Part shown: in pieces, positions 2,037-12,901 of the stretch
Layout: every line of letters starts with the position of its first letter
Position numbering within the stretch: the stretch's first letter is position 1
From: a virus
Taxonomy: Duplodnaviria > Heunggongvirae > Uroviricota > Caudoviricetes
Reading direction: 5' to 3' (one strand)
Virus record (IMG/VR): IMGVR_UViG_2526164633_000052
Length of the DNA: 15,394 bases
Translations under genes and position numbers: made by a program
Notes under the pieces: generated by a model
What the model saw: only the letters and a program-made list of their open reading frames with translations
What the model was told of the DNA's origin: nothing
Databases searched by the model: none

Positions 2037-2576
2037 ATGAATCCGTTTAACGCCATTACTTTTGCTGCATTGTGCGGGCCTCTGGCTTGTCCTGCTGCTA
2101 TGGCGCAGGAGTTCATCATCCAGCCAGCCCCTGTGATTGCTAAACCTTTTGAGTACTCTCCTTCTGTTGAGGAATTCTCACGCAAAATGGAAGAGGGTAA
2201 GGAGATCTTGCAAAAGTTAACAATTGCAGCAGATGACTACTATATCTGTTTGATTGATCTTAATAGCCAAGATGCTCGCGAGTTTGTTTCCAAAAACGGG
2301 ACAGATACGACAGAGGCATGCGAAATGTTCCTGCGTGCTTTTGAAGAAGAAGTGAAGCGTACAATTGAATCGCCTCTGCCTGAATTTATCAGGTCAGAAC
2401 TGAAGGTTTACTGGCGTCATATTGCTAAAGCTCGCTCATCTGTCACTCGCCTTAACAATTACATAAAGAGCATATTTAAAGAAACTGTTACTTTTAGCGG
2501 GCGCGCGGATCTTGCTGGAATTGCAGCACTAGCTAGTCACACATCAAATAAGCTAAAATCGATGCAATTTCACTAA
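2037..2576 (+). CDS. Hypothetical 179-aa protein, upstream partner of the YafO-like toxin (candidate non-canonical antitoxin); N-terminus hydrophobic and signal-peptide-like
   Basis: Good RBS (GAGG) before ATG 2037; 16-bp gap to downstream toxin ORF; no recognisable HTH/RHH or Phd/YefM features; alternative internal start at Met51 (2187). Confidence 0.5.
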   Translation: MNPFNAITFAALCGPLACPAAMAQEFIIQPAPVIAKPFEYSPSVEEFSRKMEEGKEILQKLTIAADDYYICLIDLNSQDAREFVSKNGTDTTEACEMFLRAFEEEVKRTIESPLPEFIRSELKVYWRHIAKARSSVTRLNNYIKSIFKETVTFSGRADLAGIAALASHTSNKLKSMQFH

Positions 2577-2592
2577 CCGATAGCGGACGACC

Positions 2593-3027
2593 ATGCATCT
2601 AGAAGTCTCTATTAATCCAGAAACTAGAGCTGAATTTTTTGATGAAGTTTTTCTCAAATTCCCGGAGCTAGAGTCTTCTATCATTGATGATTTCAAGAGA
2701 TACAAAGCAACCGGTGAGCTTCCGCATTATTTCGGTAGGGACGTTGCGTATACTCAGCCTTATGGTGCTTTTCGGGCTGGGTTGATGCATATCCATCTTT
2801 GTCTACCGCCAAACAAGTTTCCCGAGAAACTTCCACAACCGGATAGGGTCTGCAAGAAAGGTGATCCTGATAATGATGCTTGTCTTGTGTATGTCCAAGG
2901 TGAGCTTTATGAGAATAAATATTCACTCATTGCTATTATGTATCCCGATGCACATGAAAAAGCAAGAAAACATGATGTGATGAGCTATCTGGCGCGAATT
3001 GCCCAGAATTATAAAGATGAAAACTAA
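2593..3027 (+). CDS. YafO-family type II toxin (ribosome-dependent mRNA interferase family)
   Basis: By-eye alignment to E. coli YafO as recalled: YKxxGxLPxxFGRDxxY, HIHL, LVYxQG, LIAIxxPxxHxxAR motifs in the same order and spacing; 144 aa. Confidence 0.7.
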   Translation: MHLEVSINPETRAEFFDEVFLKFPELESSIIDDFKRYKATGELPHYFGRDVAYTQPYGAFRAGLMHIHLCLPPNKFPEKLPQPDRVCKKGDPDNDACLVYVQGELYENKYSLIAIMYPDAHEKARKHDVMSYLARIAQNYKDEN

Positions 3028-3048
3028 CCCGCCGAAGCGGGTTTTTTG
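3027..3048. terminator. Intrinsic terminator between the convergent toxin gene and the PrtN-like gene
   Basis: Stem acccgc/gcgggt with cgaa loop followed by tttttt on the plus strand; A/T-rich on the other side as well. Confidence 0.55.
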
Positions 3049-3053
3049 TGAGA

Positions 3054-3326
3054 TTAGTTATTTATTTTCCTATTTGTTCTTACCCTCTCCCATTCAATTC
3101 TGCCTTCTTCACGCCGTTTATCTATATATTCAGCAAGATCCTGAATGTTGATGCAGCGCTTTGCTTTCTGTGATGTACCAACACGATAAGTCGGGATCGG
3201 CAACTGGCATGCATTTGCTTTCGCTTCTGCTGTGTTAGGGCTCATACCGAAATACTTTTGGCATACAGCTGACAGCTCAATGTTTGGGGTATTGAATTCA
3301 GCCATCAGTAAAAACAAGGTGTTCAT
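3054..3326 (-). CDS. PrtN-family / excisionase-like small DNA-binding protein
   Basis: Translation from Met at 3326 (MNTLFLLMAEFNTPNIELSAVCQKYFG...) resembles the pyocin-activator PrtN family; GGAG RBS 6 nt upstream of that ATG; the ORF is open further upstream to GTG 3353. Confidence 0.65.
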   Translation of the reverse strand: MNTLFLLMAEFNTPNIELSAVCQKYFGMSPNTAEAKANACQLPIPTYRVGTSQKAKRCINIQDLAEYIDKRREEGRIEWERVRTNRKINN

Positions 3327-4849: not shown

Positions 4850-5068
4850 TCAGCTTTCCTTATATGGATTAATTTTATTGTGCAGTGTGTTGAACGACGC
4901 CCATACCACGTCGTTATACAATTCAATAACTGGCTCAATTATTTTCCCGATTGCCCATACCAGAATTAACGGGGATATCGGTATCATCAACACGATAAAC
5001 AGAATGAGAAACAAAAATTCTGTCGCTCTACTTCTTCGCGGATATTCTTTTCTGAATAATGTCGGCAT
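4850..5068 (-). CDS. Small single-pass membrane protein (72 aa)
   Basis: GGAGAG RBS 4-5 nt before ATG 5068; one clear transmembrane segment FLFLILFIVLMIPISPLILVWAIG. Confidence 0.45.
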   Translation of the reverse strand: MPTLFRKEYPRRSRATEFLFLILFIVLMIPISPLILVWAIGKIIEPVIELYNDVVWASFNTLHNKINPYKES

Positions 5069-5069
5069 A

Positions 5070-5261
5070 TCACTCTCCTTTAGTGCGCAAGTGGTTTTCC
5101 CAGCGGTTTTGCGCCGCGCTGGGCTTATCTTTGACTCCCTCTCTGGCAATTCCAGAATATAAGTACAACACCACACGGCGATTGCTAACTCTCAACCACT
5201 GGCAGGGATAGCAACGTCTGTATACACGGGAAATAAGCATCTTTGCTTTACGGTTTTTCAT
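5070..5261 (-). CDS. Small basic protein (63 aa), paralog of the next ORF
   Basis: Starts MKNRKAK; its ATG overlaps the stop of the upstream paralog; shares N-terminus and a diverged KP(S/T)A(A/S)QNR segment with ORF 5258-5434. Confidence 0.4.
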   Translation of the reverse strand: MKNRKAKMLISRVYRRCYPCQWLRVSNRRVVLYLYSGIAREGVKDKPSAAQNRWENHLRTKGE

Positions 5262-5434
5262 CTTACTGCGTACCCTTTCTTTCGCCTGTTCTGTGACGCT
5301 GTAGGCTTACGCTTTGCGGCAAAAGCCACCTGACCAAATGGATGGAGTACTGCTATCTTATGGTTGCTGATAACCAGCTCCACCACACGCACAGGTCGCT
5401 GTAAAAAAAGTCGTTTTGCTTTACGGTTTTTCAT
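5258..5434 (-). CDS. Small basic protein (58 aa, below the ORF-track cutoff), paralog of 5070-5261
   Basis: Hand translation MKNRKAKRLFLQRPVRVVELVISNHKIAVLHPFGQVAFAAKRKPTASQNRRKKGYAVR; AGGAG RBS 9 nt upstream; the first 20 nt are identical to the start of the downstream paralog. Confidence 0.35.
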   Translation of the reverse strand: MKNRKAKRLFLQRPVRVVELVISNHKIAVLHPFGQVAFAAKRKPTASQNRRKKGYAVR

Positions 5435-5606: not shown

Positions 5607-6236
5607 TTACTCACCTTCTTTGATGCGAATGCCAGCGGCGCGTGGCACATTAACTTCCACGATGCGCACAGTTGGTTTGTACATCTCAATCGCTGTCAGC
5701 CAGTCAGCGCCGGTCATATGCTTTTCTGCATCGCCATTAGTCCATTGAACCGGCACACCAATAGCTTTCATCGCAATTTCTATTTCCCCGGCAATGGCGC
5801 TTTTCCCGCAACCAGTAAAACCAGAGACAACGACAAGAACTTCGCCTTTGGCTGGTTTTATTTCCCGTGCTTCCAGTTCTGCTATGCGCTTCTCTGCGGC
5901 TTCCAGCTTGGCTTCTGCATCTTTGGCTCGCATCTGCCAGTTGATAGCGATGTCGATAACGCTGTTAGCACAACTGGACTCGTTCTCTTCGGCAGCTTTA
6001 GCTTCAGAAAGCTCATCAAGCAATCCAAGAACAACAGTTGGCGTGGCGAGCGTGATAAAACGCATATTGCTCATATGCTCTTCATCGCTGACCTCATCTC
6101 CAGCCTCGACCGCTGCCATGTGCTGAACATAGCCGCTATCACAGGTATTCCAGATTGCCCCTGCCTCGTAACCCCATTCACCATGTAGTGCTTTTTCTGC
6201 CGCCTCACGCAGTGCCTGGTAATTAATTTCGCTCAC
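5607..6236 (-). CDS. Coiled-coil early protein, probably an Ea22-like mosaic-family member (from memory, unverified)
   Basis: GTG start with AGGAGG RBS; N-terminus SEINYQALREAAEKA and central KRIAELE coiled coil; overlaps the stop of the upstream gene. Confidence 0.6.
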   Translation of the reverse strand: MSEINYQALREAAEKALHGEWGYEAGAIWNTCDSGYVQHMAAVEAGDEVSDEEHMSNMRFITLATPTVVLGLLDELSEAKAAEENESSCANSVIDIAINWQMRAKDAEAKLEAAEKRIAELEAREIKPAKGEVLVVVSGFTGCGKSAIAGEIEIAMKAIGVPVQWTNGDAEKHMTGADWLTAIEMYKPTVRIVEVNVPRAAGIRIKEGE

Positions 6237-6913
6237 TGACAGCCTCCTTTGCGAAGCTCTGCAGCGAAATATACAGCTGCGGAAACAATAGCTGCATGTC
6301 GGTATTCACCATCAGAAAAGAGAGAATCTCCCTTAAGTGCATTGACGATACTCTGATGATTTTTTGCCAGCATCTCCACACCCTGCGCCCGTACTTCAGC
6401 CAGGAAAGCATCTGTAGCCGGGGTTTGCGGCATACCTCCGTCTGTTGCGCAGATATACGCATCAGATAGTTCATCCTGCTCGCCATCAAACACGTAGCAA
6501 CTCTGTGCGATAAATTTATTTAGCCCCGCATTCTCCGCCGCCAGCGCCGCGCAATTACCCTCCAGCTCTGCAATGCGCTGTTTTGCAGCATCAAGTTCAA
6601 TCGATAATTTTTCCAACTGCTCTTTATGCTTCTTGTATTCCTGATATGCGTGCCAGGACTGACCTTTGCGCACACTATCAGTAATATCAGTAATCTGTTC
6701 TGGTGTTAGCGTGGTCAGTGGCTGTGCTGGGAAAATCAGCACTTTCCCGGAATCCCAATCAAAACCAGCGTGAATTGACTGAACCTCAACTGAGGGTGTT
6801 GAACCAATGCTGCCAGGCGAATGAACAACGATCGTTACATCCATATCGCGACGATGGCTGTGGTTGTTGGACAAAATACGATTCACCAACTCAGAAAATT
6901 TGGAGAATTTCAT
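6233..6913 (-). CDS. Mosaic coiled-coil phage protein; C-terminal half paralogous to ORF 7329-7907
   Basis: Start taken at ATG 6913 (GAGG RBS 6 nt upstream); contains the 134-bp segment that is repeated in 7594-7727. Confidence 0.6.
   Translation of the reverse strand: MKFSKFSELVNRILSNNHSHRRDMDVTIVVHSPGSIGSTPSVEVQSIHAGFDWDSGKVLIFPAQPLTTLTPEQITDITDSVRKGQSWHAYQEYKKHKEQLEKLSIELDAAKQRIAELEGNCAALAAENAGLNKFIAQSCYVFDGEQDELSDAYICATDGGMPQTPATDAFLAEVRAQGVEMLAKNHQSIVNALKGDSLFSDGEYRHAAIVSAAVYFAAELRKGGCQ
6420..6553. repeat. Copy A of an approximately 134-bp near-identical direct repeat (copy B at 7594-7727)
   Basis: Direct comparison of the two stretches: only a handful of mismatches over about 134 bp; both copies are inside coding sequence and encode ...CAALAAENAGLNKFIAQSCYVFDGEQDELSDAYICA... 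Confidence 0.8.
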
Positions 6914-6921
6914 GCGGAGCC

Positions 6922-7332
6922 TCAATATGCAAAATAGACCGTTGCCACGCCGTTATAGTGATCAAACGATACGGCGTTTACTTCATAGCTGGCAGGGAGC
7001 TTCGAGCCGAGAACATATCCGGGCCACGTTTTCCATGGAATTTCTCTACTCTCACTACCCCCATATACCGTACATCCAAGTGAACCTACAGCCTCGTCAG
7101 AACGTTTGCCGCATGTTATGAAACCTATATTTTTCTTGCTGGTCTTAATGGCGATTGGGTGAACACTGGCTGATGCATTGGCAGCACGCTGTGACTGTTG
7201 GTTTGCGATATTCGCAGAGTTCGCAGCAGCTACAGCAGCCATGGTCGCGGCGGTAGATGCCACAATAACTGCTGAAGCCTGCGCCTGTTGGGTAATGGTC
7301 AGCAATGCCGCCACAAAAATCATCTTCTTCAC
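6922..7332 (-). CDS. Secreted or periplasmic protein with N-terminal signal peptide (136 aa), function unknown
   Basis: GTG start with GGAG RBS 7 nt upstream; MKKMIFVAALLTITQQAQA has the n/h/c regions and an AxA cleavage motif of a Sec signal peptide; Ala/Ser/Asn-rich mature N-terminus. Confidence 0.6.
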   Translation of the reverse strand: MKKMIFVAALLTITQQAQASAVIVASTAATMAAVAAANSANIANQQSQRAANASASVHPIAIKTSKKNIGFITCGKRSDEAVGSLGCTVYGGSESREIPWKTWPGYVLGSKLPASYEVNAVSFDHYNGVATVYFAY

Positions 7333-7907
7333 TTGTCAGCTCCTTTGCGAATCTGTTCCGCCCATTCTTCAAGGGATTTCTCCGCATATTCACCGGACAG
7401 GCCATCAATCGGGTGCGGTTCATTAGCCAACTCTTCTTTCGCTGACAGAATCATGCGCGTAACGTCGAAAACTTCACGTAAAGACTTATTGATAAATCCG
7501 TGGTTGAAAGCAGCAGCAAGACGGCTTGCGGTATAGTTAATCCCCTCGTTGCGAGCCGCCGCACGAATTTCAGCCAAAAAAGCATCGGTGGCTGGGGTTT
7601 GCGGCATCTTTCCGTCTATTGCGCAGATATACGCATCAGATAGCTCATCCTGCTCGCCATCAAACACGTAGCAACTCTGTGCGATAAATTTATTTAGCCC
7701 CGCATTCTCCGCCGCCAGCGCCGCGCACTTGGCCTCAAGGTTATCAATCGTGATTCCAGCAGAACGGCACTCCCGCAACGCCGTTTCTAGTTTTGATTCA
7801 AGTTCACCGAACTTACGCACCAGGTATTCAGCATCCGTTTCATTCACTTTCAGATCTCGCGGTACACATTTCCCGAGAAGAAACCATTCCATTTCGAAAA
7901 CATTCAT
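7329..7907 (-). CDS. Hypothetical coiled-coil phage protein; shares a module with ORF 6233-6913
   Basis: ATG 7907 overlaps the stop of the YfdR-like gene (ATGA); contains repeat copy B. Confidence 0.6.
   Translation of the reverse strand: MNVFEMEWFLLGKCVPRDLKVNETDAEYLVRKFGELESKLETALRECRSAGITIDNLEAKCAALAAENAGLNKFIAQSCYVFDGEQDELSDAYICAIDGKMPQTPATDAFLAEIRAAARNEGINYTASRLAAAFNHGFINKSLREVFDVTRMILSAKEELANEPHPIDGLSGEYAEKSLEEWAEQIRKGADK
7594..7727. repeat. Copy B of the approximately 134-bp direct repeat
   Basis: See copy A; same orientation, 1174 bp apart. Confidence 0.8.
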
Positions 7908-8440
7908 GCGCATTTGCGTAACTCCGATAACTCGTTAAAACGTTCCATAAACATCCCGTAGGCATGGCCTGGTGACAGTGGAATAACTTTGAACATCTCT
8001 GTTGCTGGGATGCCTTCCAGTACAGGCCAGAAAGAGCCATCATCAAGCCCGAGATCGCGGCGTTCGGTTGCCAGCATAATGAGATCGGCATATTTCACTG
8101 GCGTGCTCATAACAGGAGGTAACCCGTATTTCTCACGGATTACGGCGTCTATTTTTTCTTCCATCCGTTTATAGTCAGGAAGAAGGCGTTTCAGTGGCGC
8201 GGGAATGTCCTGGCAATACGCTTCTGTTGCATCATGCATTAACGCTTCAAAAGCAAATTCCTGCGGTACCAGCTGGCTGCAAAGCACCGCATGTTGGGCG
8301 ACGCTGTAGAAGTGTGAAAGATGTCCTGCAAAGCGACAGATATTTGAAAGGGAAACCGCGATATCGTTAATAACGATGTCATCTTTATTTATCTTGTCAT
8401 AATAAAAATGTTTCCCGGAAAAAGTTTTAATAAATGACAT
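7904..8440 (-). CDS. yfdR: HD-domain phosphohydrolase, YfdR-like (5'-deoxynucleotidase family)
   Basis: 178 aa from ATG 8440 (GGAG RBS 7 nt upstream); HD-type motifs (HxxxV...HDAxE...D); size and gene order match the yfdP-yfdQ-yfdR cluster of E. coli CPS-53 as I recall it. Confidence 0.75.
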   Translation of the reverse strand: MSFIKTFSGKHFYYDKINKDDIVINDIAVSLSNICRFAGHLSHFYSVAQHAVLCSQLVPQEFAFEALMHDATEAYCQDIPAPLKRLLPDYKRMEEKIDAVIREKYGLPPVMSTPVKYADLIMLATERRDLGLDDGSFWPVLEGIPATEMFKVIPLSPGHAYGMFMERFNELSELRKCA

Positions 8441-10435: not shown

Positions 10436-10470
10436 AGATACATTATGTATCTCAAGGGTACATTGTCAAG
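10436..10470 (-). promoter_or_regulatory. Candidate pL promoter with overlapping operator palindrome
   Basis: On the minus strand: TTGACA (plus 10464-10469), 16-bp spacer, CATAAT (plus 10442-10447); perfect 17-bp palindrome agatacattatgtatct (10436-10452) overlaps the -10. Confidence 0.45.
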
Positions 10471-10496
10471 TATAAAAAAACCTGCCGAAGCAGGTT
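10471..10496 (-). terminator. Rho-independent terminator of the repressor gene
   Basis: Stem aacctgc/gcaggtt with cgaa loop (10479-10496); on the minus strand it is followed by a run of 7-8 T. Confidence 0.6.
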
Positions 10497-12068: not shown

Positions 12069-12901
12069 ACAGTTTAACGGCAAATAACCGTTTGTCGCAA
12101 CAGCTGGTGGTCAGCGTCGCTGAACACCTGTTGTTACGGCATGAATGCAGATTACCAAATCACCTGGCTGTAAGTAACCACAGAGAACTTTACCTGACTG
12201 TGGGGGGCGAGTTGTGCAGGAACTTAACCGCTGGTTTCGTGACGGAAGAGGACTTTATGTTCATGTTATTCGTTGGGAGCCAGAAACACAGCGCGTTATC
12301 TATCTTCGCAAAGACTACCCGCATGAGTGCTTTAGTCCTTTGTGGAAATTCAGGCGTGATTTTGTTGAGTGTGAAGGACCACCAGCACATTGATTCTGCC
12401 ATTCCGGGACGTTACACTGTTCAGGCACCTTATAAAGCGGGTGCCGGGATTGGCGTCCTGGAATTGATCAAGGCGATATATGACGCGCCAGCGTCTTTTT
12501 TATCGTCCGCATTTGCTCACATCAAAGTTATGGTGGGCTGGGCGGGGGCATCGAAAGATGCGCCGGTTTCCTTGATCACCGGTTACGCCAACCCCGTTCA
12601 GTTCACCACCAGCGAAATTGGCGTTTCCGGTGGTGGAAGTATTTCACCGATCAAGGAGGCTGCCATCATGGCTACTGTCCCAGCCCTCACTCGTCTGAAT
12701 GATGAAGACTTACATAAACTCAGTTATGTAACAACTGCACTACGTGCTCTGCGCAAGGTAACTCTTTCGGATCCCCAGGCGCATCAGGTTTTGGTAGAAA
12801 CCCTTCTTAACTTGCAGGCTGAACGTATTCGTCTGGCGGATAAGGCTAATTTTCATATTCACCGTCTCCTGAATATCAGCGGAGGGCATCGTCATGCTTA
12901 A
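12065..12901 (+). CDS. Hypothetical protein (278-aa ORF); gene structure uncertain
   Basis: Long open frame translationally coupled to both neighbours (ATGA at 12065; downstream ATG 12894 overlaps its end); no family recognised; 12178-12402 is open in three frames. Confidence 0.4.
   Translation: MNSLTANNRLSQQLVVSVAEHLLLRHECRLPNHLAVSNHRELYLTVGGELCRNLTAGFVTEEDFMFMLFVGSQKHSALSIFAKTTRMSALVLCGNSGVILLSVKDHQHIDSAIPGRYTVQAPYKAGAGIGVLELIKAIYDAPASFLSSAFAHIKVMVGWAGASKDAPVSLITGYANPVQFTTSEIGVSGGGSISPIKEAAIMATVPALTRLNDEDLHKLSYVTTALRALRKVTLSDPQAHQVLVETLLNLQAERIRLADKANFHIHRLLNISGGHRHA

Follow-up and report, generated by a model that had tools for sequence, protein, structure and literature searches.

What does a small, apparently exported protein do in the early-left operon of a lambdoid prophage? 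The question is raised by a 136-codon open reading frame (ORF) in the window, the whole stretch of 15,394 nucleotides of caudoviricete DNA analysed here, for which the initial annotation had proposed a Sec signal peptide, an Ala/Asn/Ser-rich mature N-terminus, translational coupling within an operon of otherwise cytoplasmic products, and a function in lysogenic conversion or superinfection exclusion. An uncharacterised exported protein is a common kind of finding in prophages. Phage proteins with a known site of action in the periplasm are few; among them are T4 Spackle, P1 Sim and the lipoproteins Llp and Cor, and each of these has brought a different stage of phage entry to light. The features discussed below are collected in Table 1.

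Table 1 Features of the exported-protein gene and its surroundings, in window coordinates
Feature	Position	Strand	Remarks
Complete ORF	6922..7332	-	136 codons plus TGA, GTG start; RefSeq WP_000738193.1, PHROG 8805
Predicted Sec / signal peptidase I signal peptide, MKKMIFVAALLTITQQAQA	7276..7332 (codons 1-19)	-	Predicted cut AQA|SA
Ala/Ser/Asn/Val-rich spacer	7159..7275 (codons 20-58)	-	Low-confidence modelled helix; length varies in the family, shorter in T1-like phages
Conserved globular domain	6925..7158 (codons 59-136)	-	Modelled as four strands, one helix, two strands; pLDDT 88.9; dN/dS 0.07-0.10
Cys74 codon	7111..7113	-	Family-invariant; first Cys of putative disulfide loop C-x11-12-C
Cys87 codon	7072..7074	-	Family-invariant; second Cys of putative disulfide loop
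Shine-Dalgarno AAGGAG	7340..7345	-	7 nt 5' of the GTG, within the final codons of the 194-aa ORF
Upstream 194-aa ORF	7329..7913	-	PHROG 614, related to Ea22-like proteins; TGA overlaps the exported-protein GTG
Downstream 226-aa gene	6233..6913	-	PHROG 368; starts 8 nt past the ORF stop
Direct repeat, left copy	6386..6574		189 nt, 89% identical to the right copy; the repeat brackets the ORF
Direct repeat, right copy	7560..7748		189 nt
pL-like promoter candidate	10442..10469	-	TTGACA-16-CATAAT, 11/12 matches, just past the cI-like repressor gene and a terminator; consensus match only

A catalogued gene family with the marks of purifying selection

The DNA around the ORF is identical to the Escherichia coli chromosome NZ_CP066032.1, where the locus belongs to a lambdoid prophage adjoining a dusA remnant and where RefSeq annotates the ORF as a 'hypothetical protein'. 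The match to PHROG 8805 (function unknown) runs end to end (E=3e-85), and pairwise Nei-Gojobori comparisons of prophage copies give a whole-gene dN/dS of about 0.15. Because the ORF is annotated in RefSeq, matches a PHROG over its full length and shows this ratio, we judge it to be a genuine gene under purifying selection. As it begins with GTG, its first residue is fMet. The antisense or overlapping ORFs at 6703-7083, 6864-7121 and 7178-7426 on the plus strand and at 7145-7423 on the minus strand gave no family matches, and no Rfam family overlaps the locus.

The start codon and the stop codon of the 194-aa ORF before it overlap in the tetranucleotide GTGA, and the downstream annotated gene has its ATG 8 nt past the stop. 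Taken with the Shine-Dalgarno sequence, these distances fit translational coupling; of the coupling proposed in the initial annotation it is the layout that is observed, and from it we infer the coupling itself. The 194-aa ORF is intact, matches PHROG 614 over its full length (E=7e-82) and has a homologue annotated on plasmid pKOr024_2; on the identical chromosome RefSeq/PGAP calls only a 41-aa 'incomplete' pseudogene fragment at 7329-7913, and the ORF is probably a gene missed by annotation.

PHROG 8805, with WP_000738193, represents the protein's own family, for which no function, domain or structure is recorded. Searches of Pfam (E<=0.01), NCBIfam and PDB sequences returned no match for the ORF, PADLOC-DB none for the ORF or its neighbours (E<=0.1), and no homology to an annotated exclusion or defence family was found in PHROGs, PADLOC, Pfam or NCBIfam. 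A word-indexed search recovered 56 close clusters, all the named ones coming from Escherichia, Salmonella, Shigella or Citrobacter, and 17 more-divergent clusters were added by seeding it with a T1-like phage homologue. When the family profile was run exhaustively with HMMER against 1.84 billion representative proteins, only 18 matches reached E<=1e-3, about ten of them true family clusters (50%-identity clusters); long matches broken into several stretches probably reflect the low-complexity spacer. One UniRef label for the family reads 'Prophage exported protein', and no mention of this label, of the accession WP_000738193 or of the PHROG number was found in the literature. The family is already catalogued, without an assigned function or recognisable relatives.

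A predicted signal peptide and a polar spacer

The predicted signal peptide consists of an n-region MKK (residues 1-3), an uncharged h-region of 10 residues, MIFVAALLTI, with a mean Kyte-Doolittle value of 2.84, and a c-region TQQAQA with Ala at -3 and -1, which places the cut A-Q-A|S after residue 19. All 35 family members examined have K or R within their first 7 residues, and the h-regions of the homologues are 8-15 residues long with Kyte-Doolittle means of 2.05-3.20. A home-made and crude test, requiring the n/h/c architecture and an AxA site, is passed by 34 of the 35 members, including ones only about 40% identical, the single exception failing only through an Asp in its c-region; as a control, 2 of the 65 window ORFs of at least 60 aa pass, the second being an out-of-frame ORF inside annotated genes. 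The n/h/c architecture and the AxA site are kept in those 34 homologues while the signal sequence itself diverges. The lipobox [LVI][ASTVI][GAS]C finds no match in the protein, whose only cysteines stand at positions 74 and 87, and a reading as lipoprotein is rejected on this ground.

The Ala/Asn/Ser-rich mature N-terminus described in the initial annotation is likewise present: residues 20-58 form a low-complexity segment with 15 Ala, 6 Ser, 4 Asn and 4 Val, evolving at a dN/dS of 0.2-0.6 (pairwise Nei-Gojobori, prophage copies). This segment bears on whether the protein is released at all, as it might instead remain in the inner membrane as an uncleaved signal-anchor, or form a hydrophobic hairpin with its C-terminal domain on the cytoplasmic side. 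Such retention would agree with a second hydrophobic stretch at residues 19-37 (mean Kyte-Doolittle 1.79 over 19 residues) and with the single long helix that AlphaFold draws through residues 3-54. However, that helix is of low confidence (pLDDT 55-76), and the Hessa-scale sum of residues 19-37, a simple and crude measure, is positive (+2.2 to +4.1 kcal/mol), so that the stretch should cross the translocon and not anchor. T1-like homologues, moreover, lack the stretch altogether and yet retain signal and domain, and the Ala-rich segment is rejected as a membrane anchor on account of both its Hessa-scale sum and this absence. With an AxA site following a short h-region throughout those 34 members and an invariant Cys pair, retention in the membrane is very unlikely. 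Export through a cleavable Sec signal, with cleavage by signal peptidase I, is well supported as a prediction from the conserved architecture, the missing lipobox, the invariant Cys pair and a spacer too polar to anchor, and to this extent the 136-aa exported product proposed at the outset is upheld.

Two smaller features were seen near the start of the mature chain. The spacer contains an N-A-S (N-x-S/T) motif that is nearly invariant within the prophage clade and not in the most distant members; a bacterial N-glycosylation-like motif was rejected because distant members do not keep it. Most members also open the mature chain, directly after AxA, with a hydrophobic x-V-[IV]-[IVA] tetrapeptide, which is not universal in the most distant ones.

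A conserved domain with an invariant cysteine pair

The 78-residue domain is under strong purifying selection (dN/dS 0.07-0.10, Nei-Gojobori, prophage copies). Down to 37-45% identity the family keeps the signal architecture, both cysteines and the motifs GF[IV]TCG, GSLGC, WPGY-LG, LPASY and AT[VI]YF-Y, and a stabilising disulfide between the two cysteines is likely. The full-length AlphaFold2 model combines the low-confidence N-terminal helix with a folded part at residues 68-134 (pLDDT 81-89); modelled alone, the domain reaches a pLDDT of 88.9 and a pTM of 0.74, the five models spanning 85.9-88.9. Structure prediction of the mature domain, suggested earlier as a check, thus delivered a confident fold and no relatives: a search with the confident domain model found no significant structural neighbour, and in the BFVD viral fold search only a same-family member matched. 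The most variable columns of the domain are those of the Cys-Cys loop (residues 76-82) and of the next hairpin (residues 90-97), and in the model these variable loops on a fixed scaffold suggest a specificity surface.

At the other end of the chain, Y132, F133 and Y135 do not vary, and most members end in Tyr. The resulting C-terminus, ..YF-x-Y-COOH (residues 132-136, 6925-6939), is nearly invariant in the family and resembles the C-termini of outer-membrane proteins and PDZ ligands.

Placement in a leftward early operon

The gene lies about 3.1 kb into a leftward, co-directional array that starts just left of a LexA/cI-like repressor gene and runs through yfdP, yfdQ, yfdR, the 194-aa ORF, the exported-protein gene, the 226-aa gene, an Ea22-like gene and small genes, with a DUF4014 gene, an HNH endonuclease, a DUF551 gene, a 3'-5' exonuclease and a PrtN-family gene making up the rest. 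A terminator and the TTGACA-16-CATAAT candidate together occupy 10442-10496, and the leftward transcript covering the ORF presumably originates at this candidate. A consensus-only scan of the minus strand between 10442 and the ORF found no other promoter-like site; as the scan was of this kind, some low-level expression in lysogens may occur. No terminator flanks the ORF, and its GC content (0.47-0.50) is the same as that of its neighbours. Moron status was rejected, given the missing promoter and flanking terminator, the ordinary GC content and a start that overlaps the stop of the upstream gene. The early operon of Mu is switched off in lysogens. In lambdoid phages pL drives the comparable exo-xis/ea22 region and is kept repressed by cI in the lysogenic state (PMC7093339).

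The proposed placement within the early-left operon is supported by the pL-like candidate beside the cI-like repressor gene and by the absence of an intervening promoter-like site in that scan. The accompanying claim that the operon is otherwise all cytoplasmic does not hold: the DUF4014 gene (4850-5068, minus strand) encodes a 72-aa protein with a strong predicted transmembrane helix (Hessa-scale sum -2.4), which matches PHROG 1832, labelled 'released from the phage upon host infection', and which is, by prediction, a second envelope-directed product of the leftward operon.

The 226-aa gene and the 194-aa ORF on either side have a 96-aa segment in common (64% identity), which accounts for the 189-nt direct repeat around the exported-protein gene. 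Recombination between the two copies would delete the ORF and may also explain how it travels from one Ea22-like region to another. The flanks of the ORF are matched by about 950 E. coli records, but the ORF itself is present in only about 100.

Elsewhere in the window, 12425-12501 and 12526-12613 on the plus strand match the Rfam isrK Hfq-binding RNA (64 bits) and C4 antisense RNA (82 bits) above gathering scores, overlapping a gene that RefSeq calls 'ash family protein'; judged by these matches, the rightward region of this lambdoid prophage contains an immunity (antirepressor-control) RNA module of the P1/P7 type. At the prophage edge beside the dusA remnant, a 179-aa gene (2037-2576, plus strand) is followed by a YafO-family toxin gene (2593-3027, plus strand), an assignment below the NCBIfam cut-off that RefSeq also makes. 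The pair is oriented against the early-left operon and may be toxin-antitoxin or defence cargo.

Occurrence in five phage backgrounds

The gene is present in 97 of 5,426 complete E. coli genomes (47 sites on chromosomes and 54 on plasmids) and in only 5 of 50,697 phage records; its 66 plasmid carriers are all typed as non-mobilizable. Five genomic contexts can be distinguished. Lambdoid prophages carry it in the leftward operon, as in the window. Chromosomal Mu-like prophages hold copies of 84-89% nucleotide identity in the early region between DUF3164/DUF2786 and GemA/Mor, and a metagenomic Mu-like contig shows the same arrangement upstream of GemA/Mor. P1-like phage-plasmids have it together with phd/doc, Hot-like Pol III theta, HumD-like peptidase and Icd-like genes. 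The surroundings of the gene in the lambdoid, Mu-like and P1-like elements are early or accessory genes. Virulent T1-like phages, for which no integrase or repressor is annotated, place it after a C5-cytosine methylase in a small-gene block ahead of the terminase, and the fifth context is the rV5-like myovirus Av-05. This occurrence in five unrelated phage backgrounds is, in our view, the most interesting feature of the family.

No neighbouring gene is common to all five contexts, and a universally conserved partner was rejected; PHROG 1380 co-occurs in only three of the five. In the window this small basic protein is encoded by tandem paralogues at 5070-5261 and 5258-5434 (minus strand; 58-63 aa, both starting MKNRKAK). 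Mu-like prophages encode a homologue immediately upstream of the exported-protein gene (loci L010-L012, about 2915-3103), and in Av-05 one is found two genes downstream of that gene (locus L002, 3754-3963). The PHROG 1380 protein could be a loosely linked partner or shared mosaic cargo.

Compared with the window copy, the Av-05 copy (L002, 2824-3234) has a dS of 0.20 and a dN/dS of 0.68 overall and 0.55 in the domain, with changes concentrated in the hairpin at residues 88-104, a pattern suggestive of a recent transfer after which selection was relaxed or diversifying. As the Av-05 gene came in a multi-gene block shared with prophages and at low dS, it is weak independent evidence of use to a virulent phage.

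Comparison with known exported phage proteins

The phage-encoded exported lipoproteins T5 Llp and T1/phi80/N15 Cor stop superinfection by receptor blocking. The present family resembles them in being phage-encoded and, by prediction, exported, and some of its carriers are T1-like. Llp and Cor, however, have a lipobox Cys, whereas the family has an AxA signal peptidase I site; no PHROG cross-match links them, and in T1-like phages the exported-protein gene stands among the small genes ahead of the terminase and not beside tail or receptor-binding genes.

A closer parallel is T4 Spackle, an early protein whose 97-aa precursor matures to a periplasmically active form of 75 aa with a disulfide (PMC7677548). 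Like the exported protein, it is a small early product of a phage that begins with a cleavable signal (predicted for the exported protein) and whose mature globular part of some 75 residues bears a single Cys pair. Spackle works by itself in the periplasm while lytic growth proceeds, and the exported protein is presumed to do so too. In contrast, Spackle is an alpha-helical bundle and the exported-protein domain is modelled as beta-rich with one helix, a 39-residue Ala-rich spacer exists only in the latter, and the carriers of the latter include siphoviruses and temperate phages that lack a gp5-type tail lysozyme. Neither a sequence nor a fold match to Spackle was found, and the comparison is one of analogy, not homology.

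Discussion

The best explanation of these observations as a whole, which we hold tentatively, is an exported early periplasmic protein that protects the envelope during lytic growth. Its first steps would very probably follow the signals in the sequence: the precursor would pass through the Sec translocon, signal peptidase I would cleave it after AQA, and a soluble mature protein of about 12 kDa and pI about 9 would fold in the periplasm, where a disulfide made by DsbA between Cys74 and Cys87 would close the variable loop. Synthesis would probably begin once the repressor-controlled leftward early transcript switches on, that is, when the phage infects or the prophage is induced, but not in a stable lysogen. 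Since no partner is conserved across the five backgrounds, the protein probably acts alone, and its target would be something common to Enterobacterales envelopes or to incoming phages. It would bind a periplasmic or outer-membrane component, or the penetration apparatus of a superinfecting phage, through a specificity surface formed by the variable Cys-Cys loop and the adjacent hairpin, and would in this way shield the envelope of the infected cell in lytic development, by superinfection exclusion or by protection against lysis from without. This envelope-shielding mechanism, proposed by analogy with the logic of T4 Spackle, is the likeliest of those considered, though taken by itself still somewhat unlikely; as no sequence or fold tie to a known exclusion protein was found, the idea of exclusion draws on analogy and context only.

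Exported prophage proteins often act in lysogenic conversion, and the initial annotation had pointed in this direction: a factor made in the lysogen would alter the host surface, by receptor masking or envelope modification, to the benefit of host and prophage. The predominance of prophages and phage-plasmids over phage records among the carriers would agree with such a role. Against it stand the position of the gene deep in the repressor-controlled early operons of lambdoid and Mu-like elements, the lack of moron hallmarks (no promoter-like site of its own, GC not distinct, a start overlapping the stop of the upstream early gene), its carriage by virulent T1-like and rV5-like phages, and the silence of pL-driven exo-xis genes in lysogens (PMC7093339). 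Because the gene resides in repressor-controlled early operons of three temperate types and is also found in virulent carriers, a lytic role is favoured over lysogenic conversion, which we regard as quite improbable. A different possibility starts from host proteins. RcsF shares the DUF1471 (YhcN-BhsA-SrfN-YdgH) fold, and the exported protein might be a distant structural cousin of DUF1471 (BhsA/YhcN/SrfN/YdgH) or of the RcsF fold that modulates host-envelope physiology through outer-membrane permeability or stress signalling. All three sequence tests of DUF1471 membership failed: not one of the 26 domain sequences was matched by the Pfam model (PF07338) at E<=10, PDB sequences searched with the family profile at E<=10 yielded no DUF1471 chain, and an hhalign comparison with a mini-profile made from solved DUF1471 chains returned 2.8% probability over 11 columns. 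The DUF1471 fold, with its four-stranded sheet in the order 2-4-3-1, long helix between strands 2 and 3 and scarce cysteines, also seems to differ in strand count and order from the modelled exported-protein domain, and it offers no counterpart to the family's conserved putative disulfide pair (PMC4092069); DUF1471 is chromosomal, whereas the family is phage-borne. Given the failed tests together with the DUF1471 strand order and scarcity of cysteines, the resemblance is a sub-threshold echo and not membership, and a role of this kind is unlikely.

The protein could also serve as a periplasmic counter-defence factor or enzyme inhibitor, neutralising a host nuclease, protease, peptidoglycan hydrolase or defence effector of the periplasm that harms DNA entry or progeny. 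Early expression and spread over unrelated phages would be typical of anti-defence and host-takeover genes, the architecture of the family is that of a single gene, both the loops that vary on a conserved scaffold and the raised dN/dS in the Av-05 comparison would fit an evolving binding interface, and defences that act in the periplasm exist (PMC13128918); even so, we consider this an improbable explanation. More speculative is mimicry of an unassembled outer-membrane protein, whereby the aromatic C-terminus would engage the PDZ domains of DegS, DegP or Prc and tune sigma-E. The Y-x-F peptides at the C-termini of outer-membrane proteins activate DegS, and the invariant aromatic residues with their usually terminal Tyr recall them. 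The motif, however, is F-x-Y and not Y-x-F, some members extend beyond it (TEKK, R, W), and its residues form the last beta-strand of the sheet in the model, so that its conservation is probably structural; mimicry of this sort is the least credible of the explanations considered.

For the preferred reading, a periplasmic protein acting in lytic growth, the exchange of the gene among five unrelated lifestyles and morphotypes of phages infecting Enterobacteriaceae, its strong purifying selection and its lack of recognisable relatives point to a periplasmic or outer-membrane target of broad usefulness. It is conceivable, if rather doubtful, that the family constitutes a structurally unprecedented class of phage periplasmic effectors, in which a disulfide-locked mini-domain, secreted early by lambdoid, Mu-like, P1-like, T1-like and rV5-like phages alike, binds one conserved component of the Enterobacterales envelope. 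If true, such a class would provide a general block to superinfection, or a periplasmic anti-defence, by a mechanism not described so far. Identification of the target could reveal a new mechanism of exclusion or counter-defence, of relevance to phage-therapy cocktails against E. coli, Salmonella and Klebsiella.
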